Assembly: GCA_963663475.2 (NCBI GenBank) | Contig: CAXXJV010000001.1 | Location: 1,344,001-1,408,000 of the forward strand | DNA from: Candidatus Cloacimonadales bacterium | GTDB taxonomy: Bacteria > Cloacimonadota > Cloacimonadia > Cloacimonadales > JAFGVF01 | Direction: 5' to 3' | DNA length: 64,000 nt | In this document: positions 18,802 through 47,381 of the stretch, piece after piece | Numbering within the stretch: position 1 is the stretch's first letter | Layout of the letters: the number at the start of each line of letters is the position of its first letter | Translations under genes and position numbers: made by a program | The notes under the pieces: model-generated | Database searches by the model: none | Seen by the model: only the letters and a program-made list of their open reading frames with translations | Told to the model about the DNA's origin: nothing

Positions 18802-18916
18802 TTAACCTCCAAGATGTTTGTTAAGAAAACAATAATCATGATGCACATAAAATAAATAATGTAATAGTAAATTGAGAAAGATAATATGTTCAAAACTATT
18901 GCATAATTATCATTAA

Positions 18917-19034
18917 TATGCACTTTGAAATTAAATTGCAGTGAATGAGAAATTATTTTGCAGTTTAGTCAAAAGTACACTGTTGAGAAATTATTTTGCA
19001 GTTTAGTTCTAAGATTTAGAAATTAAATTGCAGT
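18917..19034 (+). repeat. Left end: 53-bp TIR (18917-18969) with four GAAATTAWWTTGCAGT motifs
   Basis: Motifs at 18927, 18949, 18987, 19019; putative transposase-binding sites. Confidence 0.92.
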
Positions 19035-19043
19035 TTAGTTTAT

Positions 19044-19502
19044 TCAAAAGTTATTTTTTTGTAGTTTAATAATCAAATCTTTACACTCTAAAAGTTCTCT
19101 TAACCTGGTAAATAATTCTTGATTAAGTTCTTGATTTTTGTTTGAAAGGATAGAGCATTCTTTTTCAGACTGATCAATGCTTTTTTTTAAGTCATTACAA
19201 ACCTTTTCCAGCTGATCATAACGTTTTCTTAAGTTAATTAACTCACTATTATCTATCCTCTTCTCCTGGGACTCTTTATTATCCGATAAAAACATCTCTC
19301 CCTTACCTGTTAATAACCAGTTTAAATTAACATCATATTTTTCAGATATTCGTATTATGGCATCCATGGAAGGGTTAGCTTTTCGATTTTTACTAAGCCA
19401 ATCGGAAATATTTCCTGGAGAAACATTAATAGATAAAGCAAAAGTCTTTTTATTGATATTCAATAAGTTAATCAGTTCTACAATTCGTTCTGCAACTTCC
19501 AT
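19044..19502 (-). CDS. Phage CI-like repressor (XRE HTH + coiled coil)
   Basis: HTH then VNLNWLLTGKGEMF; divergent from Cro-like gene at the left end. Confidence 0.88.
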   Translation of the reverse strand: MEVAERIVELINLLNINKKTFALSINVSPGNISDWLSKNRKANPSMDAIIRISEKYDVNLNWLLTGKGEMFLSDNKESQEKRIDNSELINLRKRYDQLEKVCNDLKKSIDQSEKECSILSNKNQELNQELFTRLRELLECKDLIIKLQKNNF

Positions 19503-19600: not shown

Positions 19601-19795
19601 ATGAAAAAAGATGAAAAAACGAAAGTTGCCGAACAAATGCGAATATATCGGGCAATAAATCGACTATCTCAAGAGAAGCTAGGAGAACTTTGTGGATTAT
19701 CTCAAAGAACCATATCATTGATAGAGAGTGGTGAATTCAATCGCGTATCAGCAGATACATTTAATAAGGTAGCAGAATATGTGGTTAACCACTGA
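19601..19795 (+). CDS. Cro/Ner-like XRE HTH regulator
   Basis: LSQEKLGELCGLSQRTISLIESG; GAGG RBS. Confidence 0.88.
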   Translation: MKKDEKTKVAEQMRIYRAINRLSQEKLGELCGLSQRTISLIESGEFNRVSADTFNKVAEYVVNH

Positions 19796-19931
19796 GCCAG
19801 CAGCCGAAAAATTAGGTATATCGGTAAGAACTCTTAGAAGAAGAATTGCTAAGGGCTTATATCCTACAAAGTATGAAACTGTAGATACTGATAAAAACAT
19901 TACAACTAAACTTTACATATGGATAGATGAT

Positions 19932-20054
19932 GCGGAGTGCCAAGCGGAGTGCCAAACCGAAAAAGCGGAGTGCCAAGCAGAGTGCCAAACCGAAAAAGCG
20001 GAGTGCCAAGCAGAGTGCCAAACCGAAAAAGCGGAGTGCCAAGCGGAGTGCCAA
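19932..20054 (+). repeat. 33-bp coding tandem repeat (AECQAECQTEK x3.7)
   Basis: Direct inspection. Confidence 0.97.
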
Positions 20055-20772
20055 AATAATTTAGAGCAGAGTGACAAAAATAAATCCCCCCAAATCCAAC
20101 CCTTAACCCTTCCTCCAATTTTATCAGATTATGGTCCTGATTTTTTCATTAAGCGGACATCTGGTTCAATGCGGGACAAATTAATCGAGACATATTTAAA
20201 TTTAAGTCGAGATGAGAAGAGTCAAGTTTTGGGATATGTCAGGCAGTTCATGAGTGAGCGAACCTGGTATAGTTGGGTAAGTCGATATAGGAATAGGGGT
20301 CATTTAAAGAGAAAGGTAAGAGCAGATAGGGGTAAGAGTCGTAAAGAGCTTCCTACTTTTATGCAGGAGTTATTACAGGCAATTCTTATTTCTCATCCTC
20401 AATGGAATGTACAGAAGGCTTACGAGGATATGAAGCTATTGGCAGTCAATGGGGACTTAGTAGATTATTATACTGGTGAAGTATATGAAGATGTAAGTGA
20501 GTATTTGGTCCGTGAATGGATAAAGACTTCGATCGTTCGTGATAGATGGTATTTCAGGTGGTATCCTAAGAGCAGGCGAAATCTTTATACCAGTATGAGT
20601 CATGCTCGAGGAATAAACCCACCTAACACGGTATGGATGATAGATGATCATGACCAGGATGTATTAGTATGGAGTAAAGACAAGGATGGAAATGACAGGC
20701 AAATCAGGCCAAAGGTAATTTGTGTCGTTCCATAAAAGTGGACTAGAAAATTAAACAAACTAGGAGCTTGAA

Positions 20773-21195
20773 ATGGAAAGAAAAAAGAATATGACTCATA
20801 AGATTCAAAAGACCTATAGTGAAAGTTTTAAAATTAAAGTTGTTGACGAAATAGAGAAGGGAGATTTAACTCAAGCTGGAGCTTGTAGACTTTACAATAT
20901 TTCAGTTAGCAATGTGAGTAGATGGGTTGCCAATTATGGTATGAATGAACGAGTTGGAAAAAAGGTGGTAGTTATGACCGATAGAGAAATACGTGAATCT
21001 GACCTTTTAAGGAAAGAGAATAAGCAGTTAAAACGAGCATTAGAAGATAGTCAGTTCTCCAACGAAGTTCTAGAGAAATATATTCATTATATTGCAGAAC
21101 AAAATGGTATTGATTTAAAAAAAAAGATCGATTCAGGTTTATCAGAAGATACTCAGAAACTCTTGATTTCAAGGTTGCTAAAAGGTCAGGAATAA
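20773..21195 (+). CDS. IS3 transposase OrfA
   Basis: YSESFKIKVV...HTH and leucine-zipper-like segment; A9G slippery run at 21117-21126. Confidence 0.9.
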   Translation: MERKKNMTHKIQKTYSESFKIKVVDEIEKGDLTQAGACRLYNISVSNVSRWVANYGMNERVGKKVVVMTDREIRESDLLRKENKQLKRALEDSQFSNEVLEKYIHYIAEQNGIDLKKKIDSGLSEDTQKLLISRLLKGQE

Positions 21196-21200
21196 GCCAA

Positions 21201-21986
21201 ATGTGTAGTTTATTACAAGTATCTAAATCAGGTTACTATAAATATCTTCAAACTGTCTCCCAGAGTTCTACAAATGACTCCCTATGTCTCTCCAGAGTTA
21301 AACAATATAGAAAAATTCAGCCTTATGCAGGCACTTATAAATGTTGGAAAATGCTACATAATGATGGTTTTAAAATTGGGAGAAATCATCTTAACTGCCT
21401 GCTTAAAGAACATAATATGTTGATCAGGAAGAAGAAGAAATATTGCAAAACTTCAATATCAGATGGTAGTAAGGTATATCCTAATTTACTTAAAGATACC
21501 GAAGTAAAGAGGAAAAATCAAGTTTGGGTAACTGATATTACTTATATTTCTAAAGGCAAAGGGTTTTATTATTTGTTTTTGCTAAGTGATATGTATACTA
21601 GACAGATATTGGATTATGAAGTTTCTTCTAATATGTTGACTGATAATCATATAAGGATGTTAAAAAGACAGCTAAACCATGTTGATAATGCTAACGATCT
21701 TATTCATCATTCAGATCATGGTTCTCAATATACAAGTAATGAGACTATTAGCCTTCTGAAAAAGCATGGTATAAAGATTAGTATGACTGGTGATGGTAAA
21801 TGCTATGATAACCCTATTGCTGAAAGAATAAACTGCACAATGAAGCATGAATTTGGTTTAAATCGGACATTTAGCACTATAGAAAGTCTTAAAAAAGCTA
21901 CTAAAGATGCAGTAATGATCTATAACTCTCAGAGACTTCACAAAAGTTTGGGGTATTTTACTCCAAATGATTTTGCAAATCATTAA
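21201..21986 (+). CDS. IS3 transposase OrfB (integrase core), -1 frame relative to OrfA
   Basis: WVTDITY, HHSDHGSQY, DNPIAERIN; frame open back to the slippery site. Confidence 0.93.
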   Translation: MCSLLQVSKSGYYKYLQTVSQSSTNDSLCLSRVKQYRKIQPYAGTYKCWKMLHNDGFKIGRNHLNCLLKEHNMLIRKKKKYCKTSISDGSKVYPNLLKDTEVKRKNQVWVTDITYISKGKGFYYLFLLSDMYTRQILDYEVSSNMLTDNHIRMLKRQLNHVDNANDLIHHSDHGSQYTSNETISLLKKHGIKISMTGDGKCYDNPIAERINCTMKHEFGLNRTFSTIESLKKATKDAVMIYNSQRLHKSLGYFTPNDFANH

Positions 21987-23462
21987 AAGAGGTTACCAGA
22001 TGATGAACAGATACTTAGCTGAATGTATTTTCTTTTGGAAAATGCGACTAAATTACGAATGCAAAATGGAGTCGACAACAGAACTCAAAAGTATGAGTAA
22101 ATGTCTCATTTTTCAAAAGAGATACATGACTCAGGATACATAAAAAAGGTGTCCACTATATTGGTACTTGACAATTCGTTCCTTGGATCCAGAGACTAAT
22201 ATGATAATGGGCTGGTGCATGACAGATGACACATATGGTTCTATTGAGATAAAGACAGCTATCATAGATGGAATAATCAAGCATAGATGTATTCCTAAGC
22301 AGATATATTTAGAATGTGATAAAAGAATGCGGGAAAGCGGATTGATTGAAGGTTTAGAGAAGTTAGGAATAGAAGTAATAGGAACTCCTTACAATCCGAC
22401 AGCTAAGGTTAATGTAGAGCGAAGTTTTGGCAATGACAGGATGGAGCTTGATAGCAAGTATGATTCTTATATTAACCACAACACAGTTGAGCGTCCAGAT
22501 GATGCAGACAGAAGAGTTTTCACCAATTACGAGGAGTATTTCCAGGATTATGCAGATTATGTAGAGCATTGGAATACCCAGCGACCAAGTATCTTCAGGG
22601 GCAAGATAAAAATGACTCCTGTAGATATGTGGAATGCCTGGATAAAGAGAGGTTGGAAACCTGAAATGTTACCAATGAATGTAATTGACCATATTCCTTA
22701 CTGGTTTGGCAAGAAAGAAGTAAGGGTAGTTCAGGGTGGTAGAGTAAGATTTACTATAGATGGTGAGCAGTTCTACTATTTAGGAGAGTGCTTAATGCAA
22801 CTTCCTAATGGAACCCCTGTAGATATAAGAAGAAAGTTTAATGATCCTCGAGAGGGTTATGTATATATAGGTAATGAGAATTTAGGCAAGATATTCTTAC
22901 AAGAGAAAGTAGGTTATGGATTCTTAGAGTTCTCACAACCGGAAGCTGTGAAAATGGTACAAGGATTTAATCTCATGAGAACCAAGTTATTGAAGGTTAA
23001 TGATGAAGATTATCCATTTATCAAATCTTATCTTAATAGAATTGAGGAACTTAGCAAGTCACAAATCAAAGACGCAACTATGTTAATCCCCAATAAGATC
23101 ATTCGTTTCATCAACGAAAAGACAGGTTCAGCTTTAGAAGTATCTGAGAAGATGCGACAAGAAGAAGTATCAGTTCTTAAGGTTAAGAGTGGTTTAACTA
23201 GGAAGATGGATAGTAAGGTGAATGATTTGGATGATGAAATTAGTGCCTTATTGGGAGGAAGTGGAGAGTGATTTTGAATTGAGAATAAAGGGATATTTGA
23301 ACAGAGAATAGAGTGATTAAGAGTGAGAAATGTAGGGGCGAAACATCTTTCGCCCAATTAAGAAACCACCCCGTCTTGGAAATACCAAGACACCCCTCCA
23401 CAGAGGGGAATTAAGAATGCCGGCAAGATGCCAGCGTTCCCAGTAAAATAAGGAGTAAGAGA

Positions 23463-23925: not shown

Positions 23926-24283
23926 AGACATGGGATGGACACCTGAAGAGCTTCATCAGCAGATAGGTAGTCTAAACATGGTTCGATTTGATAGGATAAG
24001 CTGTTGTTCAGGACGGGAGTTATCTCTAATCCTGAACCAGCTTTTTCAGGTTCAAGCATTTGTGGCAGACAGTAAATCGGTAAGATATTTGAAGTATCTG
24101 TGTAAAGATAATGATAATAAGGAGACCTTGAAAGGTATTCTTAAGCGTTGGAAAAAGCAAAGTGTATATCAAATGAATAACAAGCAATTAGCGTTTGCTA
24201 TATCGTTTTTAAAGGGAGATGAGACTGGAGTTAGGAGTGAGGAGTTGAAGAGGCTCACCACAGAGAACACAGAGAAGAATTGA
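23882..24283 (+). CDS. Mu gp16/GemA-like (DUF1018-like) protein
   Basis: AIRLIWHKSKDMGWTPEELHQ...SGRELSLILNQL pattern; C-terminus runs into repeats. Confidence 0.6.
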   Translation: MERKAAIRLIWHKSKDMGWTPEELHQQIGSLNMVRFDRISCCSGRELSLILNQLFQVQAFVADSKSVRYLKYLCKDNDNKETLKGILKRWKKQSVYQMNNKQLAFAISFLKGDETGVRSEELKRLTTENTEKN

Positions 24284-24357
24284 GAATTGAGAGTTGAGAG
24301 TTGAGAATTTCCTCACACGAAGACACGAAGACACGAAGAAAAAAAAGGAGTAAAATT

Positions 24358-24813: not shown

Positions 24814-25046
24814 AGTGCTTCACACGAAGGCACGAAGGCACGAAGAAGAAAAACCCCTTAACACAGAGTTTCACAGAGGTTAAGAGGAGTTTCACAGAGG
24901 TTTGAGAGTGGAAAGGATATGAAAAGCGTACTGGAATACGCATTTATACAATTTTAGATATTAACAAATAAGTCAAGAAGAAATTAAGAATTAAAGAGAA
25001 TGCGGGCAGGGATGCCCACGTTCCCAGTTAATTAAAGGAGAAAAAG

Positions 25047-25807: not shown

Positions 25808-26080
25808 ATGAAACCTAGAGTGATAATCCATTTAGAGTGTGATAGTGTATTAAGAGAACCTAAAGTAGTTAAAGCCTTGGAAGATTTAGGAATCGAAATA
25901 ACAGGGACAGCTTATAATCCAACAAGTAAAGTTGATGTGACGATACAGAAAGAATTAACCCTTGAAATGGCTCACAAGAAGATTGAGAGCATGTTCGAGG
26001 GGCTCCCACCCTCTAAAGTAGCCAATATACTAAGTTATATTGCTGATGAGCTAAGAGCTGATACGAGGTTTAAACTATGA
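25808..26080 (+). CDS. Small protein whose N-half copies part of the transposase catalytic core
   Basis: IHLECDSVLRE...LEDLGIEITGTAYNPTSKVDV vs IYLECDKRMRE...LEKLGIEVIGTPYNPTAKVNV. Confidence 0.75.
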   Translation: MKPRVIIHLECDSVLREPKVVKALEDLGIEITGTAYNPTSKVDVTIQKELTLEMAHKKIESMFEGLPPSKVANILSYIADELRADTRFKL

Positions 26081-26628: not shown

Positions 26629-27243
26629 ATGAATAACGAACAATTTATGGAGTTAAGTCCTGAAGAAAGATTTGAAGCAATCAGGAAGCTCTTAGGAAAG
26701 ATGGAACTTAGTATGGTAGAGACAGGTAATCTGCTCTCTGAGATTAAGAGAATGCGAACATACAAAATAAAGGGTTATAAGAGCTTTAGAGAGTTTACTG
26801 AAGCTGAGTATAACCTACCCGGTAGAGTGGCCAATTCTTTAACTAAGATGTATGACTTCTTTATTAGAGAGATGAACCTGGATGAAGATACTATCAATAA
26901 GGTTGGTTTTGATAAGTTGGAGTTAATCCACCCAATAGTAAAAGATACAAGTTATGAAGTTCAGGAGGAGTGGGTAAAAACAGCTGAAGACCTTACATAT
27001 CCTGAGTTAAATGAGAAAGTAAAAGAGATAAAGGTAAAAGCCCGGGAAGAAGCAAAGACCTTAAAAGATGTCTTAGTAGAACAATATTTTGAGAACATGC
27101 TGGGTTACTTTAACTGCTCTAAGAGAGAATTAAGTTATAAGTTAGCTCTCTATTTCCAGGATATGGACTTGCAGGAAGTTAATGAAGTGATCAGGAAGCA
27201 ACAGAGGAAGTTTGAGGAAGAGGTAGAAAAGTCTTCACACTAA
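26629..27243 (+). CDS. Phage protein (DUF3102-like helical/HTH)
   Basis: AAGGAG RBS; GNLLSEIK...GYKSFREFTEAE motif. Confidence 0.65.
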   Translation: MNNEQFMELSPEERFEAIRKLLGKMELSMVETGNLLSEIKRMRTYKIKGYKSFREFTEAEYNLPGRVANSLTKMYDFFIREMNLDEDTINKVGFDKLELIHPIVKDTSYEVQEEWVKTAEDLTYPELNEKVKEIKVKAREEAKTLKDVLVEQYFENMLGYFNCSKRELSYKLALYFQDMDLQEVNEVIRKQQRKFEEEVEKSSH

Positions 27244-27345
27244 TTAACACGAATTTAAGCAAATTAACACGAATTAAGAAATACCCTTAACACAGAGTTT
27301 CACAGAGGTTAAGAGGAGTTTCACAGAGTTTTAAGAGAGGAGAAT

Positions 27346-27456
27346 ATGAAAAAAGGAATCAAACACAATGAAATAAGCAAAATAGCTAAAGAACTAAGAG
27401 GTTCAAGAGCCGAAAGAAGAAGAGAAGCGAAAAAGATAATAAAGAGAGGTAAATAA
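27346..27456 (+). CDS. 36-aa basic peptide
   Basis: GAGGAG RBS; TAATG coupling to next gene; SRAERRR. Confidence 0.5.
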   Translation: MKKGIKHNEISKIAKELRGSRAERRREAKKIIKRGK

Positions 27457-28067
27457 TGGCAAAAGAGATTAAAGAAGGAAAGAGTGTATATTGGGTCGAT
27501 GGAGAAGGATATAAGGTTCCTGTAAAGTATATCAGTAAAGATGATCAGGCCCGTGATGAGTTAGTGTGTAAAGTTATAAGTGATGTTATTGCACTTCAGA
27601 AGCAGATAGCAGAGTTTAGAGTAGATGTCTTCAGAGTAGTGGATAATCATTTAAACAAGGTTGCCCATCAACATGGTGAAGACTGGCGAGGCAATGCCTG
27701 GATTTATGATTTTTCTAAGGAGAAAGCCATCGAGGTTAAGATCAATAAGAGATTAGCTTTTGATGAACGCCTCCAATTAGCCAAAACTAAGATAGATAAC
27801 TATATCAAAGGACTTGTGAAACAATCAGGTAAAGAGATAGTTATGCTTATTAATAAGGCCTTTAATGTCGATAAAAGAGGCAATGTAGATGTTCAGCAGA
27901 TTTTAGGATTGAGACAACTAAAAATCGAACATCCGGAATGGCAAGAAGCTATGGCCTTGATAGATGAAGCAACCCAGGTAGAATCTACCAAGAAATATCT
28001 TACCTTTAAGGTTAAGGATGATACTGGGGAATGGAATACTATCAGCTTGAACTTTTCAGCACTGTAA
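27456..28067 (+). CDS. DUF3164-like protein typical of Mu-like phages
   Basis: YWVDGEGYKVPV..I...D..RDELV; FDERLQLAK; W.EAM.LI; ISLNFSAL. Confidence 0.8.
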   Translation: MAKEIKEGKSVYWVDGEGYKVPVKYISKDDQARDELVCKVISDVIALQKQIAEFRVDVFRVVDNHLNKVAHQHGEDWRGNAWIYDFSKEKAIEVKINKRLAFDERLQLAKTKIDNYIKGLVKQSGKEIVMLINKAFNVDKRGNVDVQQILGLRQLKIEHPEWQEAMALIDEATQVESTKKYLTFKVKDDTGEWNTISLNFSAL

Positions 28068-28775: not shown

Positions 28776-28988
28776 ATGTCTATAATGCTTTGGAAATATT
28801 ATCTACTGGGCTTATTTATTGTTTTAGGATATGGAAGATTATCAAAAAGTGTAATATGTTATCATTTTTTAATAATGCTTATGTTTCCTATATTAGTGGT
28901 AATCCACTGCCTGAAGATAATAATTCTCTATATAAAAGCATATTGTCCAAAATATGAAATAAGATTTATCCCGGAGAAAAGAAAATGA
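28776..28988 (+). CDS. Small hydrophobic protein
   Basis: AAGGAG RBS; ATGA coupling to next gene. Confidence 0.4.
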   Translation: MSIMLWKYYLLGLFIVLGYGRLSKSVICYHFLIMLMFPILVVIHCLKIIILYIKAYCPKYEIRFIPEKRK

Positions 28989-29659: not shown

Positions 29660-29839
29660 AGAGTTAGGAGTTAGGAGTTAGGAGTTTAAGAGGCTCACAC
29701 GAAGGCACGAAGACACGAAGAAGAAGACCAGTTGTCGGAAGTCGCTACTTCGTGAGCAAGACCTGTCATTAGAGTAATTAGTGTAATTAGCCTGGGTTGG
29801 CATAGCTTTAGCGACGCCACCTGGATAGATTAAAAGGAG

Positions 29840-32697: not shown

Positions 32698-32700
32698 TCA

Positions 32701-36733: not shown

Positions 36734-36735
36734 GA

Positions 36736-37569: not shown

Positions 37570-37579
37570 GGAGTTGATT

Positions 37580-37777
37580 ATGCCTGTTTGTGAGCAACAC
37601 GCACGACTTGAAGAAGATATTAAATATATCAAAAATAAACTTGATGGCAATGGTCGTCCAGGTGTCCTGGAACGGCTTAGCCGTCTGGAAACGAAATTAA
37701 CAATCATAATCTGGCTTAATGGTTTTATGGCTTCTGCTGTGATTGGAAGCATTATTAAGTCTATAATTGGAGGATAA
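37580..37777 (+). CDS. Small membrane protein (XhlA/holin-like)
   Basis: AAGGAG RBS; coiled coil + C-terminal TM; upstream of lysozyme. Confidence 0.6.
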   Translation: MPVCEQHARLEEDIKYIKNKLDGNGRPGVLERLSRLETKLTIIIWLNGFMASAVIGSIIKSIIGG

Positions 37778-37778
37778 T

Positions 37779-38189
37779 GTGGGCGAATTATTTAATCATC
37801 CTGCTGTTGTATCTGCTATTAGTGTAATCTTTACACTTTTTATTATGGGGGCTTTCTGGATTATTAAAAAGCAAAAACTTAACTTTGACTTCTTACTTCC
37901 AACAGTCACCACTATTATTGAAGCTATCTTTGCTAATGCTAAGGCAACTAATCCTGCTTTAGCTGCAAGACAAGAAGTAGAGACGCGACTGTCTCAAGAG
38001 GAATTAGCTAGACTCTCTAAACGCTTAGCTACCAACGACCCCGTCCAAACTATATATAATACTATAACAAATCCGGCCAGAGAGTCCGGGGAAAAAGATG
38101 CTTCTTCCTGGATAAGACAAATTGCAAGTGGCTTAGGTGCTTCTGCTATCTCTGGACTCGCAAAAGGATTGGCAAAGAAGTTGTTTTAG
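37779..38189 (+). CDS. Putative holin
   Basis: GGAGG RBS, GTG start; N-terminal TM; precedes lysozyme. Confidence 0.5.
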   Translation: MGELFNHPAVVSAISVIFTLFIMGAFWIIKKQKLNFDFLLPTVTTIIEAIFANAKATNPALAARQEVETRLSQEELARLSKRLATNDPVQTIYNTITNPARESGEKDASSWIRQIASGLGASAISGLAKGLAKKLF

Positions 38190-38197
38190 AGAAAATT

Positions 38198-38647
38198 ATG
38201 ATGAGACACATTAAAATTCAATGTAAAGAAATCGCTCGTAAGATGCTGATGAAACACGAAGGTCTAAGACTTAAACCTTATTCTTGCTCAGCAGGAAAAC
38301 TAACAATTGGTTTTGGGCGAAATTTGGAAGACAAGGGAATCACTGAAGTTGAAGCACATAATCTACTTGATAATGATATTGATTCTCTTGTCTCTCAACT
38401 GATTAAAACTTATCCCTGGTTTAGGGAACTCAATGATGTGAGAAAGGCTGTTGTTATTGATATGGCCTTTAACTTAGGACTAGCAGGCTTCTCTGCTTTT
38501 AAAAAGACTATTGCTTACCTTACTCAGCATGATTACTCTAATGCTTCTCGCGAAATGCTTAACAGCAAGTGGGCTATGCAAGTGGGTTATCGTGCCAATG
38601 AGCTATCTAAGCTAATGGAGAATGGAGAATTGAGAAGTGAGAAATAA
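38198..38647 (+). CDS. Phage lysozyme (GH24/T4-like endolysin)
   Basis: HEGLRLKPY.CSAGKLTIGFGRNL; DMAFNLG; EML.SKWA.QV..RA. Confidence 0.92.
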   Translation: MMRHIKIQCKEIARKMLMKHEGLRLKPYSCSAGKLTIGFGRNLEDKGITEVEAHNLLDNDIDSLVSQLIKTYPWFRELNDVRKAVVIDMAFNLGLAGFSAFKKTIAYLTQHDYSNASREMLNSKWAMQVGYRANELSKLMENGELRSEK

Positions 38648-38694
38648 CCGGGAACGCTGACATCTTGTCGGCACACTAAATATAAGGAGAAAAT

Positions 38695-39216
38695 ATGTTA
38701 ACTAAAATAACAACTCTTACTTATGACTTGCTAACATCAGTTAATTCTGTATTTAGCAAACAATGTAGAGTTTATGTAGCAAAAGGTTCAATGGAAGAAG
38801 CTGATATACCTACAGACAAAGCATCACTTCAAGCACTCTATTCAGGTGTTGACGCTAAGTTTGTCTTTCTGGGTAACCTTTCTGAAAGTGGATCTAAAAT
38901 TGGTTGGAAGCAAAACTCAATTGCAATTGACTTTGGTTCAATAAATACCAATACTGATATTACAGGAACACTAATTTCACTTATGTGCGATAAAAATATG
39001 CTTGGTTTCATCGAAACTCAAGTAGGAGAACATTCATTTCTTTTTATACCTGATAAAGGTGATGATACTATTCTCTGTGCTCTTTCTGGAGTAACAATGT
39101 CTCATGAAGGTGAGATTCCTGTAGTAGGAAAGAATGAAACAGCCAAAATAACCTTAAATCTAACTGCAAACGTTAATAAGGTTACTGATGCTGTTAAATT
39201 TAGCAATCTAGCATAG
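38695..39216 (+). CDS. Putative tail tube protein
   Basis: Beta-rich 173 aa; position only. Confidence 0.4.
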   Translation: MLTKITTLTYDLLTSVNSVFSKQCRVYVAKGSMEEADIPTDKASLQALYSGVDAKFVFLGNLSESGSKIGWKQNSIAIDFGSINTNTDITGTLISLMCDKNMLGFIETQVGEHSFLFIPDKGDDTILCALSGVTMSHEGEIPVVGKNETAKITLNLTANVNKVTDAVKFSNLA

Positions 39217-39226
39217 AGGTGAAATA

Positions 39227-39658
39227 ATGAAAATGATAAGAATAAAGACCGGTAGTGAACTCCATGAGTTTTACGGAACTATTGATGTTACCCCTGAAAT
39301 AAAGCATATGGTAGAAGAAGAATGTGTTTATAATACTGGTCTTTCTTATCGTTTTGGTAAGTATTTTGTTGATAAGATTCAGCTTAATCTGAGTATTTCA
39401 GCTGAGGACTACGAAAATCTCTACTATAAAGTTATGAACTTGAATGAGTGGATTATTGCCTGGGAAACCTTAAACGGCTACCAATGGAGAAAATCTCGTT
39501 CTCCTCTCCCATATCCCTCTAAAATTCGCTTTATTAACGATGCTGTTACCCTAAAAATTGAGTCTGAACCTTACACTATACCAATGCAAAACATGACTAA
39601 TATTACTATGAATACTATCTGGAATGAATCTACTCCGGATAATACTATATGGAACTAG
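39227..39658 (+). CDS. Putative tail structural protein
   Basis: GAGGTG RBS; position only. Confidence 0.45.
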   Translation: MKMIRIKTGSELHEFYGTIDVTPEIKHMVEEECVYNTGLSYRFGKYFVDKIQLNLSISAEDYENLYYKVMNLNEWIIAWETLNGYQWRKSRSPLPYPSKIRFINDAVTLKIESEPYTIPMQNMTNITMNTIWNESTPDNTIWN

Positions 39659-39821
39659 GAGTGAGGAGTGAATAGAACACAATGACACAGATTAAACAGA
39701 TTTACACAGATAAGAAAGATTTAATAATTTCGGTGTATTCGGTGTTTTCGGTGGCTAATATTTTCTTATCTTAAGACTCTGTGTTAAGGAAATTTAAAAG
39801 AATATAAAAAAAGGAGAAAGT

Positions 39822-40649
39822 ATGATAAATTTACCCGGTCCTGATACTACAGATTGGGGCACTCTCTATAACAGTGCTATTAATCAACTCGAAACTATGA
39901 TTAATGCCAAAACAACAGAAATTTCATCTCTACAAACTCTTGTTAGCCAACTTCAAGCAGCTTTAAGCGAAATAGAAATGGATACGCAACATATAGATCA
40001 CAATGGTACACCACTTTCTGATGTTGTCCATAATTTGGAAGGATCTTTTAACAATCCAATAACCCCAGGAACTAAAACCAAAATAACTTATGATGCTAAA
40101 GGTTTTGTGACAGGAGGTACTAACCTAACTGAAGGAGATATTCCTGCACTTTCAATATCTAAAATCATAGGGCTTGAGGATATAATTAACATGGTGTTAG
40201 TTGATATGGATAGAGTAGAAATATCTGCTTCTATTCGTAATACAAATGGTGGAATTAGAGTCTCATGTTTTACTAATCCTCCTGTACCAGTACAATCATG
40301 GTCTGTAATGTTGGAATGGAAAGGGTCAATTTTTTATGATGTCCGTTCTTCCTCAAGTGAAAGCTTTATCAATATGGGTAATTATCCAGAAATACCTGAT
40401 GGCCAATTAGTTAATATTATGGTGGCAGCAATATCTGGAACCAGTATTAAAAAAAAGAACTATTCACATACTTATAATTATGTGGCAACTTCCATAGATT
40501 TAAGAGTAAAAGCTGTAGAACATGAACTCGCACCTCAAGCTCTCATGGACAGAATAGCTCAAGATGATAATATTCTGAATGAATTAGTTAACAAGCTTCA
40601 ACACTCTGGCACATTAGTACAGCGTCTTAGTGAGGTTCTTGCCCGATGA
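39822..40649 (+). CDS. Tail fibre-related protein
   Basis: GTKTKITYDAKGFVTGG..L...DIP.L.ISKI fibre repeat. Confidence 0.65.
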   Translation: MINLPGPDTTDWGTLYNSAINQLETMINAKTTEISSLQTLVSQLQAALSEIEMDTQHIDHNGTPLSDVVHNLEGSFNNPITPGTKTKITYDAKGFVTGGTNLTEGDIPALSISKIIGLEDIINMVLVDMDRVEISASIRNTNGGIRVSCFTNPPVPVQSWSVMLEWKGSIFYDVRSSSSESFINMGNYPEIPDGQLVNIMVAAISGTSIKKKNYSHTYNYVATSIDLRVKAVEHELAPQALMDRIAQDDNILNELVNKLQHSGTLVQRLSEVLAR

Positions 40650-40885
40650 CAAAGACCTTAAGAGACCTCAATGTTTATGAGTGGATGCAAGGCAAAACTG
40701 TAGCCACTAAACGCATTGATATTAGCCTTGAATATAAAGCTCCTATCTACTCCCTTGTAGATAAAAAGGAAGAAATTAACATCTTCGATAAAAATATAAT
40801 CACTGAATCTGATGACTTTCCTGCTACACCTGAACCAGGTCAAATTGTTAGAAAAAATGGAATAACATACATTTACCGCCCTTAA
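40646..40885 (+). CDS. Small tail-associated protein
   Basis: FPATPEPGQIVRKNGITYIY resembles the C-terminus of 41149-41733. Confidence 0.55.
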   Translation: MTKTLRDLNVYEWMQGKTVATKRIDISLEYKAPIYSLVDKKEEINIFDKNIITESDDFPATPEPGQIVRKNGITYIYRP

Positions 40886-40948
40886 TTCCCCTCTGCGGAG
40901 GGGTGCCTGTAAAGGCGGGGTGGTATAACAAGAAATAAGGAGAAAAAA

Positions 40949-41149
40949 TTGAATTTAACCGAATATCTCGAACAAAAAAGACAAAGCTTAATAGCTACCA
41001 ACAAGAACCTATCAGATGAAAAACTAAGAGTTGAAGGTGCCTGGTTAATCTTACAAGAGATTGAAGAGATAATAACAACCCCTAAATCCCCTAAAGGGGA
41101 CTTTGAGGAAGAGAAACCCAAAACAAAGAAAACAAAGAGAGGTAAATAA
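40949..41149 (+). CDS. Small coiled-coil hypothetical protein
   Basis: AAGGAG RBS, TTG start; TAATG coupling. Confidence 0.55.
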   Translation: MNLTEYLEQKRQSLIATNKNLSDEKLRVEGAWLILQEIEEIITTPKSPKGDFEEEKPKTKKTKRGK

Positions 41150-41733
41150 TGGCTTGGAAGAAAATAGTAGATTCATCATTTACTATTAATGGTAAGGCAC
41201 TAGAAGGTCCAATTGAATTAACAAAAGAAGATGTTGGACTTAGTAATGTAGATAACCTTTCCAGAGAACAACTAATTGCAGGACTTACAGCTGATGATAT
41301 TCCTGTAATTACTATAAGTAAAGTAACAGGTCTCCAAGGTGCATTAGATGCAAAAGTTCCTACTAGCAGAACTATTGCCGGTAAGCCCTTAACAGCTGAT
41401 ATATCTCTTGCTAAGGCTGATGTAGGACTGGCAAACGTAGAAAATAAATCACCTGAAGAACTTTCATCACTTATCAGAAGTCAAATTGTGGCTGATGATA
41501 TACCACTACTTGAAATAACAAAAATAAATGGATTAGTTGATTTACATGTGTTTCTAGCCTCTGAAATTAGCTCTAAAGTGTCTAAAACCACTACCATTAA
41601 TGGAAAGGCTTTAGATGCTAATATCTCTCTTGGCGGACAAGATATCATTAGGCCAGAGTCTTCTCTCCCTGCATCTGGTTCCCCTGGTGAAATGATTAGA
41701 TTCTCAGGTAATACCTATATATGGAAGGCTTAA
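41149..41733 (+). CDS. Tail fibre repeat protein
   Basis: Repeated TINGKAL..I.L.K.DVGL.NV.N and DDIP...I.K..GL units. Confidence 0.75.
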   Translation: MAWKKIVDSSFTINGKALEGPIELTKEDVGLSNVDNLSREQLIAGLTADDIPVITISKVTGLQGALDAKVPTSRTIAGKPLTADISLAKADVGLANVENKSPEELSSLIRSQIVADDIPLLEITKINGLVDLHVFLASEISSKVSKTTTINGKALDANISLGGQDIIRPESSLPASGSPGEMIRFSGNTYIWKA

Positions 41734-41734
41734 T

Positions 41735-42373
41735 ATGTGGGTAAAAGTAGCTGATAGAGAAGAAATTGCTAAGTTTGAGATTACGCCTCAAGCTAACAAA
41801 GTTACTAGTCTAATTGGTGAAACACCAGATAGTTTTATGGCCTCTGAAGATGATTTAGGCCTTATGCTTCTTTGCAAAGTTCCTCTTAAAATTTCCTCTT
41901 TGGATATCCAATTAGAAGATGATGCTGAAATTAACCTAGAGTGTTGGCAATATGAGGGACAGAACTCTCATTTAATCTTTTCTAAATCAGGCTTTACTGG
42001 TATTCTAGGTCTTAATACTATTCCTTGTGATATTATGCTTAGTCCTGGTAAATACTTTCTAAGAGTGATTAGTAGAGGTATCTTGCTTAAAAATACTACA
42101 AAAATCTCTACAAGTCATCACTTCCTGTCAGTTGTTGGAGGCTCAAGCGTAACAAATGACCTTATTCCTGATTATCAAGAACTTTTAAATCCTACTGTTT
42201 GGTTTGGTATTTATAATATCCAAATACAAGTAGCAAATAAATCCTTATATCTAGGTATAACTGATGATCTTCTAAATAATGATGATCTCATACTAGGAGC
42301 TTTTTATCACTGTATTAAAAGTGGCTCATTAACTATGTATGTCTTTGACGGTACTCAACAATATTCAAAATAA
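41735..42373 (+). CDS. Putative receptor-binding/tail protein
   Basis: Position after fibre gene; beta-rich. Confidence 0.45.
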   Translation: MWVKVADREEIAKFEITPQANKVTSLIGETPDSFMASEDDLGLMLLCKVPLKISSLDIQLEDDAEINLECWQYEGQNSHLIFSKSGFTGILGLNTIPCDIMLSPGKYFLRVISRGILLKNTTKISTSHHFLSVVGGSSVTNDLIPDYQELLNPTVWFGIYNIQIQVANKSLYLGITDDLLNNDDLILGAFYHCIKSGSLTMYVFDGTQQYSK

Positions 42374-42416
42374 CTGGGAATGTGGGCATCCTTGCCCGCA
42401 TCTTAAAGGAGAAATA

Positions 42417-42755
42417 ATGCAATATAAAACAAATATCAAGACTCTTAAAAGAGTATATGCAATTGCTAAAGAAGTAGGATTGGAAAACATTATCATGGGT
42501 TCCAATGAAGAAAAAGAAGTGAAATTTGACCTTAAAACCATCTTAAACGGTGTTTTCGAAAAGGGTTTAATCAACGAATTCTGTCAAACTGTTACAGGAG
42601 AGACTAAAGACTTCGAAGAAGTAAGCTTAACTGAAGTGGAGAGTGTCATACTGGGTTTTTTCGATGCTATCAAAGGGGACTTGCAAGAATCAAGATTACT
42701 AAAAGCAATGATAGTAACTCAACAGAAGAATCAGATAACCCCTTCTACGACATAA
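42417..42755 (+). CDS. Tail assembly chaperone; -1 frameshift product extends to 42835
   Basis: AAGGAG RBS; G GGT TTT slippery heptamer at 42653; -1 frame open to TAA 42835; upstream of tape measure. Confidence 0.75.
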   Translation: MQYKTNIKTLKRVYAIAKEVGLENIIMGSNEEKEVKFDLKTILNGVFEKGLINEFCQTVTGETKDFEEVSLTEVESVILGFFDAIKGDLQESRLLKAMIVTQQKNQITPSTT

Positions 42756-42892
42756 GCTTTGTCTTATGGCAAAACAATATTAACCCGGATAACTTAGAGA
42801 TTGATGAAGCATTTCATTATTTGGAAAAGATTTAATTTACTTGTAGGGGCGTATTGCATACGCCCTTCCATTGGCGGTGTGGTTTCATTCCA

Positions 42893-43000
42893 TCACCTTA
42901 AATATTTATCTATCGGATTACTTCCATCATCTGATAAGATAAACCAAATGATAAAAGCTATAGGTACTAAAAATACTAATATCGCGATTATAAGCCACAT
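42893..43000 (-). CDS. 35-aa single-pass membrane peptide (antisense moron)
   Basis: AAGGAG RBS; MWLIIAILVFLVPIAFIIWFILSDDGSNPIDKYLR. Confidence 0.55.
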   Translation of the reverse strand: MWLIIAILVFLVPIAFIIWFILSDDGSNPIDKYLR

Positions 43001-43099
43001 GGGTAACTCCTTTCTTCTCTGTGTCCTCTGTGTCTCTGTGGTGAGTTCTTCATTCCTGACTCTTAACTCCTAACTAAATAATAACCAAGTAGGTATAAT

Positions 43100-45979
43100 A
43101 TGCAAGATTTAAAATTAATGATAAGATTTAACTTCGACGGTAAGAACGAATTAGAAAAGATTATCGATGAAGTTGCTAAGAAACATAACCTGGAAGTAAA
43201 GAGTAATCTGGGTCAAGTAAAGGTGGATGTAGATAGTATTGGTAAAGGTTTTACTAATATAACCAATAAAATAACTACTGCTGTTACTAAATTTGGTTTC
43301 TTTACTCAAGGTCTTTCTCAGGCAGGTGTAATATTAAGAATGCTGGCTGATGAAACTGTTAACTTAGGTAGAGAACAAATAAGATCTGATAAATTAGTTG
43401 AAGGTGCTGTTAAAGCTACTGGTGCGGCCGCTGGATTTACTACTGCTGAACTTAAACGCATGGCAAACCAACTTCAAGATGATACTAACTTCGGTGATGA
43501 AAAGCTTCTTGCTAAAGTTACCTCTGTTTTACTCACCTTTAAACAAGTTCAAGGTGATGTATTCCGGGAAGCTCAATCTCTTATCCTGGATATGTCAGAA
43601 GCTCTTGACCAAGACCTCCAGCAAGCATCAATCCAAGTAGGTAAAGCCTTGCAAGACCCAATTCAAGGAGTTACTGCCCTTCGCCGTGTTGGTGTTCAAC
43701 TATCTGAACAACAAGAACAGCAAATTAAAGACTTCATGGCTGTCAATAAAGTAGCTAAAGCTCAAAAAATTATCCTACAAGAACTAAATTCTCAGTTTGG
43801 AGGACAAGCTAAGAATGTCGCAGACCCTTTTATTCAGCTCAAAAACACTTTTGGAGATATTAAAGAAATTATTGGTATTGCCTTACTTCCTGGTCTTAAT
43901 GCTATTGCCTCCTCTACCAAAAATTGGCTTGAATCTCTTAAACCTGCTACTTCTGAACTAGAAAAAGTTACTGATGAATCCCAAAACCAACAAGCTGAAT
44001 TCTTTAGCTTAACCTCTGCCTATGAAACACTTCGCTTTAAACAAGGCGAAACCCTTGAATCTAGCACTGCCCTTAAAGATATTATCGATACTCTTAATTC
44101 TAAATATGGTGATTACCTAGGTAATATTGACCTGGCCACTACTAAATACCAAGACTTTAAAACTGCTGTTAGTAATGCGACTCTTGAACTACAAAAAGAG
44201 GCAATGACTAAAGCCTTTCTTGCTAAAAGACAAGATATTACTGATAAAATAACTGATGTGTCTGCTGACCTTGTTAATGATATAATGAAGAAAAGAAAAA
44301 AATTAGAGATTGCACAAAAACAACTCCAAAAAGCAATGGCAGAACAAAAAGTCGCAGAAACAAACTGGGAAGCAGACCAGGGTAATAATCCACAATTAGA
44401 AAGTGATCTAGAAGATGCAATATGGTGGACTGAACGAAAACAAAAACAATTAGAACAAGAACAAGAAGATTTTGACCAAGCTGTAGAAGATTTAAACAAT
44501 AAAGCCAAAGCTAAACTAACCGGCTTAGAATTAGAACTTAGTTTATTCGATGACTCCTCAACTTCTTTATTAAAACAACTTCTCGGTGAAGAAGAAGATG
44601 ATGATAAGGGCAAAGGTAAGGGTAAGGGAGGAAATACTGTTATTGCTAACCCAGATGAAATAGATAAACAACTACAAGCCCTTAAAGATAGCTTCAAAAC
44701 CAAACAGCAACTTCTTACTGATAACTACAATGCTCAAACAGAGCTTATCAATAAGAACGTCGCTGATGAAACAGAAAGGACTAACCTCTTAACAGCTTTA
44801 GATGAAAAATATGCTAATGATTCCAAAGCTCTTAAACACCAGGAATTTCAAGAAGAGCTTGCTATTGCTGAGAATAAGAAACAACTGGGTATTCTTACCT
44901 ACCAAGAACTTAAAACTACTGTAGATGAATACTATAACTGGGTTAAAGCTAATTATGATAAAGATTCTAAAGAATATGTCCAAGCCCTTAATATGAAACA
45001 TAATGCAGACCTTCGTTATGGCCAAGAAACTAAAAAACTTAACGATAAGCTGCTTAAAGATACTAAAGATACCTGGCAAACTGCTCTGAAAATGTTTGAC
45101 TTAGACTTAATACCTTACCAACAGCTTCAAACTGCCTACCAGAACTATAAAAACATGCTTCAATCTACTTCTGAAGATGCTGATCTAACTGAAGACCAAA
45201 TTAATAAGATTACCATAGCTGTTAAAGAACTCGATAACCAAATGGAGAAAATATCTCAAAATCAGAACTGGCTCTCTAAATGGGTTAATAACACTAACGA
45301 AGCTTTTGATGAAGTTAATGATCAGTCGTGGGGAGTTGCCGGCAATGTTGCCTCCTCCTGGGCTAATACCTTTACTAAAATACAAAAAGAAGGTATGGAC
45401 TTTAAAAAAGATATGGAAGCCATCTGGAAAGGCTTAGCATATGCTGTTATAGAAGAGATAAACAGAATGATTGCCCGTTGGCTTGTGCTTATGGCTATTA
45501 AAGGGATTGGTAAGCTTTTTGGATTGGATTCAGTCTTCGGTATAGCAGTGAATAAAGCCGAAGGTGGTTATATCTCAGGACCAGGCGGACCAAAAGACGA
45601 TGTTATCCCTGCCTGGCTATCTAACGGAGAGTTTGTAATCAATGCAGAAAAAACAGCCATTTTTAGACCTCTCTTAGAGTATCTTAACTATACTCCTATG
45701 GCTTCTCTTAAAACTAGCTTATCACTCCCTAAAGTTAATATGCCTGCTATTCCTAAAGTAGCTTACTCTTCAGGTGGATATGCTAATCACCCAGGATTTG
45801 ACCTGTCTCGAATAGAAGAAAAATTAGATAAACTTGATAAATTAGAAAAAGTAATTAATGAACTGCAAGAACTTAAGAAAAAAGACTACACTGTCCAGGT
45901 TTCTACTAAATTTAGAGGTGTAGAGTTCGCTAAAGAAGTAAATAAAGCCCAATCACAATACCAAAGGATTATGAGATGA
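43100..45979 (+). CDS. Tail tape measure protein
   Basis: QVGKALQDPIQGVTALRRVGV; helical body; GGYISGPGGPKDDVIPAWLSNGEFVINA. Confidence 0.92.
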   Translation: MQDLKLMIRFNFDGKNELEKIIDEVAKKHNLEVKSNLGQVKVDVDSIGKGFTNITNKITTAVTKFGFFTQGLSQAGVILRMLADETVNLGREQIRSDKLVEGAVKATGAAAGFTTAELKRMANQLQDDTNFGDEKLLAKVTSVLLTFKQVQGDVFREAQSLILDMSEALDQDLQQASIQVGKALQDPIQGVTALRRVGVQLSEQQEQQIKDFMAVNKVAKAQKIILQELNSQFGGQAKNVADPFIQLKNTFGDIKEIIGIALLPGLNAIASSTKNWLESLKPATSELEKVTDESQNQQAEFFSLTSAYETLRFKQGETLESSTALKDIIDTLNSKYGDYLGNIDLATTKYQDFKTAVSNATLELQKEAMTKAFLAKRQDITDKITDVSADLVNDIMKKRKKLEIAQKQLQKAMAEQKVAETNWEADQGNNPQLESDLEDAIWWTERKQKQLEQEQEDFDQAVEDLNNKAKAKLTGLELELSLFDDSSTSLLKQLLGEEEDDDKGKGKGKGGNTVIANPDEIDKQLQALKDSFKTKQQLLTDNYNAQTELINKNVADETERTNLLTALDEKYANDSKALKHQEFQEELAIAENKKQLGILTYQELKTTVDEYYNWVKANYDKDSKEYVQALNMKHNADLRYGQETKKLNDKLLKDTKDTWQTALKMFDLDLIPYQQLQTAYQNYKNMLQSTSEDADLTEDQINKITIAVKELDNQMEKISQNQNWLSKWVNNTNEAFDEVNDQSWGVAGNVASSWANTFTKIQKEGMDFKKDMEAIWKGLAYAVIEEINRMIARWLVLMAIKGIGKLFGLDSVFGIAVNKAEGGYISGPGGPKDDVIPAWLSNGEFVINAEKTAIFRPLLEYLNYTPMASLKTSLSLPKVNMPAIPKVAYSSGGYANHPGFDLSRIEEKLDKLDKLEKVINELQELKKKDYTVQVSTKFRGVEFAKEVNKAQSQYQRIMR

Positions 45980-47043
45980 GAATAGATTTTATAGATAATA
46001 ATACCGTCGTTGCCTCTACTGATAAACTTATTGATATCGACCTATCTTACTACGATAATGTCCTGGTCTCTAAACCTGTTGCCCCTGAAGTAAGATTTAC
46101 CATAGCTTATAACCACCTCGATAACAACGACCCCTTTGTTACCTGGTGGAAAACTATCACTCAAGGCGAAATACCCGAAAATGTCTTTGCTGTTATCTAC
46201 GACGGAAATGGTTATGAAGTCGCTTCTGGAGACCTCTTTGAATACGATGAAGACCTACAAAACTTCGCTCTCGAAATCCTTATTGTGCCAGGGTTTACTC
46301 AAATTCTTGATGAAGAGAAGAATAAATCTGGAGAAATTGTTAAGCCTATTACTCATGATGCATCTCTTAACTATATAACTGGCTTACTCAGAGAAGTATT
46401 TCTTAATATGTGGAACAAATTGAATATTCCTTATTCTTGCATTTTAAATGATCCTACTCCAAACGGTGTCATCTGGATGGATTTTATTGATGTTGCTAAC
46501 ATTATTCACTACTTTTGCCAATCCAGGCTATTATCTGGTAACGCGTACTTCCTGCGGATTAATTATGTATTAAATGGGACAAAAGCTAATTCTATCAATA
46601 GTTTGGGCTTCAGCAATCTCCTAAAATTATTTTATTCTAGAAAATCAAACTCTTTCTCTTCATGGAATCCTCAGCAAACTAAACAAGTTCAAGGTTTTGT
46701 TACTGGTACTTCATATAATGAACTTGATACAGATGATTTCTCTCCTTTATATAGACTTCGTGTATATGATTATGGTGGTGATGATGAAATAGGTGATTTA
46801 GACTCTCTATACAAAGCTAAGATACAACAAAAAGTTAATTCCTTAAAAGTAAGAAAAAATTATCATATCCAAGGAAATGTAGCTTTTACATGGCTTTACC
46901 CGGGAGACTCAATAAGCCTTAATGGACAAACTTATATCATCAAAGAAATTAATTACGATCCTGTATCATTAAATACTATATCTCACATGGGTTCAAATTT
47001 AAACCTAAAATTCTTCAATGCTGTATGTGTCAAAGGTAGTTAA
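45976..47043 (+). CDS. Putative tail tip/hub protein (last phage gene)
   Basis: ATGA coupling to TMP; stop abuts the right-end repeats. Confidence 0.5.
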   Translation: MRIDFIDNNTVVASTDKLIDIDLSYYDNVLVSKPVAPEVRFTIAYNHLDNNDPFVTWWKTITQGEIPENVFAVIYDGNGYEVASGDLFEYDEDLQNFALEILIVPGFTQILDEEKNKSGEIVKPITHDASLNYITGLLREVFLNMWNKLNIPYSCILNDPTPNGVIWMDFIDVANIIHYFCQSRLLSGNAYFLRINYVLNGTKANSINSLGFSNLLKLFYSRKSNSFSSWNPQQTKQVQGFVTGTSYNELDTDDFSPLYRLRVYDYGGDDEIGDLDSLYKAKIQQKVNSLKVRKNYHIQGNVAFTWLYPGDSISLNGQTYIIKEINYDPVSLNTISHMGSNLNLKFFNAVCVKGS

Positions 47044-47188
47044 ACTGCAAAATAATTTCTAAATCTTAGAACTAAACTGCAAAATAATTTCTCATTAAGT
47101 GATTTACCACTGCAAAATAATTTCTAAATCTTAGAACTAAACTGCAAAATAATTTCTCATTCACTGCAATTTAATTTCAAAGTGCATA
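47041..47188 (-). repeat. Right end: five inverted end motifs and 53-bp TIR (47136-47188)
   Basis: ACTGCAAWWTAATTTC x5; exact reverse complement of 18917-18969. Confidence 0.92.
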
Positions 47189-47381
47189 ATTAAACAGTGC
47201 ATGATAATAATATACATGATTTAACAATAATATAAATAAAACGATTTATTATATAATAATTTTAATTTAAATGCTTGCAACTTATTTGTTTAAAAATATT
47301 TTATTCCATTTCAATAATTATCTTCTTGACAGCTAAAAGATATTTTACTTAAATTACATTATAAAGATTAAGGAGTTTGAA

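Follow-up and report, generated by a model that had tools for sequence, protein, structure and literature searches.

The 64,000-nucleotide stretch of a Candidatus Cloacimonadales bacterium genome analyzed here (the window) carries between positions 18917 and 47188 an element of 28,272 bp, including an insertion sequence (IS), which is very likely a temperate, siphovirus-like transposable prophage of its Cloacimonadales host, with a native length of ∼26.8 kb and bounded by TA...TA. Its left terminal inverted repeat spans 53 bp (18917 to 18969, + strand, starting TATGCAC), with a boundary set by 12 distinct ends and an empty site. The right terminal inverted repeat of 53 nt (47136 to 47188, − strand, ending GTGCATA) is 100% complementary to the left arm. 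Directly outside the two arms lies an exact 5-bp duplication, ATTAA (18912 to 18916 and 47189 to 47193), seen on reading the sequence and recovered by a boundary scan. Once the IS and one ATT are subtracted, 26,816 bp remain. G+C content is ∼0.33 to 0.39 within the element versus 0.27 to 0.30 in the flanks. An original prediction made from the letters of the window had claimed 53-bp perfect inverted repeats, an exact 5-bp duplication, a length of ∼26.8 kb without the IS, and four left and five right copies of a 16-bp motif, and all of these were reproduced here.

That motif, GAAATTAWWTTGCAGT, has 10 matches in the window: four in a left array (18927 to 19034, + strand; starts at 18927, 18949, 18987, and 19019), five in a right array (47044 to 47178, − strand; starts at 47044, 47076, 47109, 47141, and 47163), and one internal (− strand). 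Shuffled sequence gave a mean of 0.05 matches, with none of 100 shuffles reaching 10. Across the 3.3-Mb genome, 31 of 32 matches fall at the ends or the internal site of three copies of the element. The first site starts 10 bp inside each tip, and the arrays are presumed to be end-binding sites of the transposase. Motif spacings are 22/38/32 bp on the left versus 22/32/33/32 bp on the right. The predicted symmetric, transposon-like character of the ends therefore holds for the outer 53 bp, which are identical, but gives way farther inside to four sites against five with unlike spacings.

From left to right, the element encodes a leftward repressor, a helix-turn-helix (HTH) protein in the position of Ner, the transposase, about a dozen small open reading frames (ORFs), a DUF3164 protein, a Phg_2220_C-domain protein, a Mu-F-like protein, a leftward operon, and a rightward operon. 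The repressor is of CI type (152 amino acids [aa]; 19044 to 19502, − strand; Pfam Phage_CI_repr, HTH_19, and HTH_3; phrog_8 and phrog_4) and faces the small HTH protein in the Ner/Cro position (64 aa; 19601 to 19795, + strand; Pfam HTH_3). The DUF3164 protein (27456 to 28067, + strand; Pfam E = 7.5e-49) is also found in a distant relative, L045. It is followed by the Phg_2220_C-domain protein (28985 to 29659, + strand; phrog_428, annotated "replication initiation protein") and the Mu-F-like minor head protein (494 aa; 29840 to 31324, + strand; Pfam Phage_Mu_F at 31.8 bits against a cut-off of 29.6; phrog_115). The leftward late operon (32137 to 35796, − strand) comprises a large terminase (34528 to 35796), a PF04860 portal (33440 to 34495), two small ORFs, and a neck or tail-completion-like protein (32137 to 32697). 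The rightward late operon (36098 to 47043, + strand) runs from an XkdF-type protease (36098 to 36733) and a phrog_1623 capsid-like protein (36736 to 37569) through a lysozyme (38198 to 38647) and tail genes, including a 959-aa tape measure (43100 to 45979), to a single final gene of 355 aa. Both operons were assigned with Pfam and PHROG. The terminase-portal block has the same orientation in all three copies, and a copy-specific inversion of it was ruled out by their collinearity. All 40 listed ORFs were matched between copies where sequence was at hand, mostly at 98 to 100% aa identity and nearly all at full length; the 186-aa neck-like ORF was matched in copy 2 only from residue 23. The capsid-like protein had no matches in a PDB sequence search, the ESM Atlas neighbors of an early 213-aa protein were all nameless, and an early 210-aa protein gave only a DUF3102-like lead in the same resource.

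The transposase gene of the window copy is cut in two. Its N-terminal part (314 codons; 19779 to 20720, + strand; phrog_310 profile positions 153 to 306) and its C-terminal part (364 codons; 22177 to 23271, + strand; phrog_310 positions 308 to 553; 99.7% identical to copy 2) are in phase and are separated by an IS of 1453 bp (20721 to 22173, + strand). The IS has the marks of the IS3 family, namely orfA (20773 to 21195, + strand; Pfam HTH_Tnp_1), orfB (21201 to 21986, + strand; Pfam rve/rve_3), imperfect TG...CA inverted repeats (TGTGTCG... and ...CTTGACA), and a flanking 3-bp duplication, ATT (20718 to 20720 and 22174 to 22176). Because it splits the gene at codon 314, the window copy is unable to make its own transposase; its ends are intact. 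Seven further copies of the IS lie on the first of the two assembly contigs, C1 (eight in total, 99.5 to 100% identical), and this near identity implies recent activity of the IS in the genome. Intact transposases of 681 aa (L007:1851-3896) and 678 aa are encoded by copies 2 and 3, respectively.

On the combined indications of sequence conservation and a predicted structure, the protein is a very divergent MuA/TnsB-type DDE transposase with an RNase H-like core carrying D, D, and E, followed by a β-barrel. A search of its AlphaFold model with Foldseek returned as best matches TnsB (E = 1e-18), Tn7 TnsB, the MuA transpososome 4fcy (E = 6e-14), the MuA core 1bcm/1bco, and IstA, over a range of 1e-18 to 1e-10, and the model places strands at residues 497 to 570 after the core. 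Residues D292, D365, and E398 are invariant among 10 transposase sequences; we take D365 as the second carboxylate, or alternatively E363, the residue that aligns with the D of TnsB. A profile built from ten family members matched ShCAST TnsB (E = 9e-5) in an alignment that brings together the first D and the E of the triad, and Mu-transpos_C was present in 17 of the 20 distant hidden Markov model matches scanned, mostly alongside rve or DDE_2. The single sequence gave no matches in a PDB sequence search. The family has few members: 8 representative clusters among 1.84 billion proteins (E < 1e-30), 10 clusters in a 5.8-billion-protein set, 2 contigs in IMG/VR (both ending inside or beside the transposase gene), and 2 metagenome-assembled genome (MAG) contigs among 185,579 species genomes. 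It occurs in 2 of 232 Cloacimonadota genomes, the present one counted, and 50,697 GenBank phage records yielded two weak matches of 23 to 24% identity. Distant relatives at 36 to 75% identity come from contigs P0004 (92.9 kb), P0007 (32.3 kb), and P0009 (21.7 kb). Family searches and fold matches thus place the enzyme with MuA/TnsB in a small, isolated clade. This bears out the predicted distinct lineage. The TA-TA ends are not unique, as such ends have been described in Leptospira prophages (PMC8705779). Elsewhere in the element, a 90-aa ORF (25808 to 26080, + strand) is a paralog of a 38-residue piece of the transposase core (BLASTP 58% identity over 38 aa, E = 1e-13). It covers the segment of the second catalytic D, lacks the final E, and is identical in the three copies; from its sequence, it may be a decoy, a regulator, or a relic of duplication.

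The genome has six matches to the left-tip sequence, which correspond to three elements. Copy 1 is that of the window, copy 2 (C2:304099-330979; 26,881 bp) is flanked by a duplication of AAAAC, and copy 3 (∼26.8 kb) is flanked by TAATG and spans the starts of both contigs. Copy 3 was pieced together from the reverse complement of C2:1-14149 and C1:1-23265, which overlap by 10.6 kb with no mismatches and one indel. The overlap inside copy 3 corresponds to C1:1-10632 and the reverse complement of C2:1-10658, and the two assembly contigs probably represent, from this overlap, one chromosome split by the assembler at the prophage repeat and not two replicons. Repeat copies of such prophages break assemblies, and one does so in this genome. 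In a scan of the three genomic copies in which the boundary was shifted by −3 to +4 and the repeat length varied from 2 to 9, all three had a nontrivial perfect direct repeat only when TA was counted as part of the element and the length was 5. Three further scan cells positive in 3/3 copies are trivial, reflecting the inner three bases of the same repeat and the TA and AT of the element itself. If the ends are read as TG...CA, none of the three copies has a perfect 5-bp repeat, in agreement with the imperfect duplication claimed for that reading.

Comparison of independent junctions led to the same boundary. Fourteen end rows reduce to 12 distinct ends (L017/L018 are the same records as L014/L012), six from this genome and six from MAG and metagenome contigs, so the search for other insertions with the same ends was answered by both the genomic copies and the outside ones. 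All 12 share TAT(G/T)CACTT, the divergence from the flanks sets in exactly before TA, and each of the four bases is represented in the position preceding TA. In four of the six outside ends, belonging to close relatives, the tip reads TATTCAC. As positions 3 and 4 alternate between TG and TT among close relatives, the conserved tip is TA and not TG. The original prediction had proposed finding the empty site of the window copy in a relative, and this was answered with copy 2 instead. A 4,667-nt contig from a microbial-mat metagenome of a different study (run X8, record 28) follows the left flank of copy 2 up to a single AAAAC and then runs on with CAATGATAGATAATATT..., the right flank of copy 2 past the second AAAAC. 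The exact empty site thus holds one AAAAC and no TA. Given this site and the divergence of 12 ends at TA, the TA...TA bases belong to the element. The genes flanking copy 2 are also adjacent, without the 27-kb insert, in 5/5 same-genus species, and in run X5 the phage tip is fused to yet another flank. For the window copy, the left flank had no real counterpart in 40 relatives (only chance-sized matches, with E of 8e-6 or weaker), and the right-flank gene is kept in 6/6 congeners only from 126 bp past the junction. Among the outside records, a Cloacimonadales MAG contig (L012, positions 1 to 2128) carries a close relative of the phage, with an 88% identical transposase, inside a small plasmid-like stretch with RepB, where the insertion truncates a Mob_Pre relaxase gene at 228 codons. 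A second relative lies on a contig binned as Methanolobus, which is probably a binning error.

Differences between the three copies are concentrated at the left end. Proteins are 98 to 100% identical among them except for the repressor (70 to 73% aa identity), the Ner-like protein (62 to 65%), and the N-terminal part of the transposase. Within the transposase, differences are limited to residues 1 to ∼115, and from residue 120 onward, 30-residue windows are 86 to 100% identical. The variable residues make up a winged-helix domain and a linker of variable 11-residue tandem repeats. In the window copy, a 33-bp tandem repeat of 3.8 copies (19932 to 20055, + strand) encodes the linker repeat (transposase residues ∼50 to 115), and the unit is unique to each copy: AECQAECQTEK, QMDTSKKSDGH, or SECQQSDTSKK. 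Phages Mu and D108 differ from each other by the same pattern of repressor, Ner-like gene, and transposase N terminus, and their A proteins recognize the operator/enhancer through the N-terminal domain. By analogy, our comparison suggests a single immunity module that can be exchanged as a unit and consists of the repressor, the Ner-like protein, and transposase residues 1 to ∼115; within it, the N-terminal domain would read the operator of its own type as an enhancer. The differing modules would allow the three copies to coexist in one cell. They also indicate independent insertions, and we read the three copies, from these sequence differences, as separate insertion events.

Taken together, these features point to the following mechanism for the transposable prophage. 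The 681-aa MuA/TnsB-type DDE transposase would bind the 16-bp motif arrays at both ends and cut so that the transferred 3′ ends read ...ATA-3′, joining them to the target with a 5-bp stagger. Such a cut and stagger would produce insertions bounded by TA...TA and flanked by a 5-bp duplication. Lysogeny would be kept, as in Mu, by the CI-type repressor, whose gene faces those of the Ner-like protein and the transposase, and the N-terminal winged-helix domain of the transposase would recognize the operator region of the matching immunity type, which would act as an enhancer. We regard additional replication of the phage by transposition as about as likely as not.

Several observations weigh against this interpretation. 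The 23 public runs were covered as contigs, and both the activity of the phage and its replicative transposition are putative. The three heteroimmune copies do not prove that the element transposed in this cell line. The Phg_2220_C protein (phrog_428) could point to nontranspositional replication. No MuB-type or AAA family match was found in 45 ORFs with Pfam and PHROG, where a very divergent ATPase is still possible, and no Walker A motif occurs in any open frame of more than 30 codons in the element. Neither GemA nor Mor gave a Pfam match, even at E values of up to 5, on 11 early or unassigned ORFs (7 of them small early ones); small, fast-evolving proteins of these kinds may escape detection by Pfam. 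The portal is PF04860 and not of the Mu type. On the transposase itself, Pfam rve and Mu-transpos_C were not significant, with rve_2 the best at an E value of 0.064 and HTH domains the only ones recognized, and the structural model is middling (mean predicted local distance difference test score of 66; predicted template modeling score of 0.45).

Some of these points are shared by a less probable alternative, in which transposition serves integration only: the DDE enzyme would be a substitute for an integrase, and lytic replication would start from a conventional origin organized by the Phg_2220_C protein. The presence of a protein with a "replication initiation protein" annotation fits this scheme, as does the failure to find a MuB-type ATPase, and the three copies are heteroimmune and hence independent insertions. 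In Mu, MuB supports target capture in replicative transposition. Against it, the left-end order of repressor, Ner-like gene, and transposase, the multisite ends, and the immunity module that includes the transposase N terminus are the arrangement of Mu, and Pfam and PHROG scans found no excisionase, integrase, recognizable origin, helicase, or primase. A prophage unable to excise needs in situ replication or transposition to leave the chromosome. It is very unlikely that the element is instead a decaying or domesticated prophage remnant, or a nonviral transposon with captured phage genes. The broken transposase gene of the window copy, the small genome with only one gene past the tape measure, and the many ORFs without a family would all suit such an origin, but the transposase genes are intact in copies 2 and 3, the 40 listed ORFs are conserved between copies, several metagenomes contain the element next to different flanks, and a relative with a transposase of 47% identity retains the same compact gene set.

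Placing the true ends at the canonical TG...CA, with the flanking TA as a duplicated target as in IS630 and Tc1/mariner, is extremely improbable. Moving the boundaries 2 bp inward does give a 2-bp TA "duplication" in 3/3 copies, but this TA-target model is refuted by the empty site of copy 2, which reads ...GTGAAAAAC followed by CAATGATAG... with TA absent. It also leaves three perfect 5-bp repeats outside the TA unexplained, is at odds with the TATTCAC ends of close relatives, where positions 3 and 4 are TT and not TG, and calls for a mariner fold where the fold of the enzyme is that of MuA/TnsB.

The 47%-identity relative, a 21.9-kb IMG/VR contig (L045/L046), shares with the Cloacimonadales prophage its transposase, DUF3164 protein, Mu-F-like protein, large terminase, PF04860 portal, XkdF protease, and tape measure, and in this relative too an ATPase was not found. 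All of its virion genes, including the protease-to-tape-measure block, are encoded on the other strand from the transposase gene, and the two lineages thus differ by the inversion of a block of ∼11 kb. It also carries a tandem duplicate of a 179-aa gene.

Among described transposable phages, the prophage can be compared with Mu and D108 (proposed family "Saltoviridae"), with which it has in common the left-end order of a repressor, a Ner-like gene, and a DDE transposase with the MuA/TnsB fold, multiple binding-site repeats per end, a 5-bp duplication, a Mu-F-like head protein, and a DUF3164 gene. Two marks of the proposed family are therefore present, a transposase near the left end and downstream of a divergent repressor, and 5-bp duplications at unrelated sites. 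A TnpB/MuB ATPase, GemA, and Mor/C were not found in our scans, and the TG...CA termini and the genome of ∼35 to 40 kb are absent. Where the family pairs a Mu-type portal (DUF935) with a Mu-F protein, the element has a PF04860 portal and a Mu-F-like domain just above its cut-off. Unlike Mu and D108, the element measures 26.8 kb rather than ∼37 kb, is bounded by TA...TA rather than TG...CA, and yielded no MuB-type ATPase, GemA, or Mor in our scans; it has a PF04860 portal, a long-tail gene set in which no sheath gene was found, its terminase and portal on the opposite strand, ends whose outer 53 bp are perfectly symmetric, and a host in the phylum Cloacimonadota. Tn7-like elements, including CRISPR-associated transposons, supply in TnsB the best structural and profile match and share the 5-bp duplication and arrays of end sites that are more numerous on the right than on the left. 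Tn7-like elements end in TGT...ACA, depend on TnsC and target selectors, and are devoid of virion genes; the TnsC and target-selector partners were not found in the element by Pfam or the Walker A scan.

TA tips have a precedent. As described in PMC8705779, 28 of 74 complete Leptospira prophages have TA at each end, with 6-bp duplications and lengths of 37.9 to 40.4 kb; the same paper calls TnpA and TnpB "signature proteins" of transposable phages. This Leptospira "TA group" (e.g., WETA1) shares with our element TA at each end, a MuA-like DDE transposase, several copies per genome, and IS3-family insertions in some members. It has as its own features 6-bp duplications, a B3/Tn552-related TnpA with a TnpB ATPase, and baseplate genes, whereas the Cloacimonadales element has a 5-bp duplication and 26.8 kb, with no ATPase found; the separation from WETA1 is based on its published description. 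TA-TA ends are consequently unusual and not unique, and because TA tips have already been published in an unrelated group, the element is not categorically new. With regard to size, PMC7761591 gives the usual range of transposable phages as 35 to 39 kb and lists GemA, Mor, portal, and DDE transposase as conserved proteins. Flavobacterium phage fF4 (∼32 kb) and Vibrio phage Martha 12B12 (∼33 kb) appear there as short examples, fF4 being a myovirus with orthologs of the gpB ATPase and the DUF935 portal in which GemA went undetected. The present element resembles these two in falling below the usual range and in having a nonenterobacterial host; it is 5 to 6 kb smaller, and the gpB ATPase and DUF935 portal of fF4 were not found in it. 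A limited full-text literature search found no publication linking Cloacimonadota with Mu-like phages and, beyond the Leptospira one, none with "TA-TA ends."

One further feature may bear on how the ends of the prophage meet. The internal end motif (32065 to 32080, − strand) lies within a 43-nt stretch (32055 to 32097) that is 93% complementary to positions 19002 to 19044 of the left end, at 44% along the genome (the IS not counted), and is present in all three copies. It may assist end pairing or represent a relic. Nearby, between the convergent operons, a consensus scan marks a putative two-way, terminator-like hairpin (32016 to 32043). Short tandem repeats with units of 7 to 10 bp (e.g., AGAATTG, ACACGAAG, CACAGAGTTT, and GAGTTAG) fill nearly every intergenic gap of the prophage, with tracts at 24276 to 24339, 27237 to 27337, 29661 to 29721, 32120 to 32151, 35816 to 35933, 39685 to 39753, and others; the copies vary in length at these tracts, and comparable tracts occur in a host intergenic region of a relative (G001). 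Several families of G+C-rich hairpin repeats (e.g., GGCACCCCTCCACAGAGGGG, GCGGGCAGGGATGCCC...GTTCCCAGT, and GGCGTATTCAATACGCC) also lie between phage genes in both orientations, at 23388 to 23444, 25000 to 25033, 29975 to 30000, 32095 to 32120, 38647 to 38681, 40881 to 40908, 42368 to 42401, and 42842 to 42867; these could be terminators or small mobile hairpins.

Outside the prophage, its left end adjoins a gene for a 1,560-aa helicase-like protein (14119 to 18801, − strand) similar to the antiphage proteins ProA, Hhe, and PLuB. The 3′ end of this gene and the spacer to the prophage had no counterpart in 40 related genomes, and the region may be part of a variable defense island. Farther left, four tandem paralogs of ∼750 aa (625 to 11562, + strand) include two that were scanned, both with a type IX secretion sorting domain at the C terminus. 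In keeping with the host, TsaD encoded in the window shares 87 to 94% identity with TsaD of Candidatus Cloacimonadales MAGs. To the right lies a complete 16S-23S-5S rRNA operon (57070 to 62105, + strand) with only ∼100 bp between the 16S and 23S genes.

We conclude that the element represents a rare, very compact lineage of transposable prophages in a new host phylum, marked by TA...TA ends with a 5-bp duplication, no detectable ATPase partner, and a head module that is not Mu-like. More tentatively, and with slightly less than an even chance in our view, it may found a family of its own, made up of minimal transposable phages of ∼23 to 27 kb, in which a small long-tailed phage independently recruited a MuA/TnsB-type transposase that works without a MuB/TnsC-type ATPase and processes ...ATA-3′ instead of CA-3′ ends, with an internal site that aids end pairing. 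Transposable phages are treated as tightly constrained, with 35 to 40 kb, TG...CA, TnpA and TnpB, GemA, and Mor. Mu, Tn7, Tn552, IS21, and Tn5053 all use an ATPase partner. The prophage sets a new low size for transposable phages, and its ATPase partner is apparently absent. PMC8705779 closes with the question of whether TA-ended prophages occur in other bacteria; the present element answers it with a yes, in an unrelated phylum, with a transposase of an unrelated clade and a 5-bp stagger. It would therefore lend itself, as a simple system, to studies of why the CA dinucleotide and the ATPase are required and, possibly, to use as a compact transposition tool.

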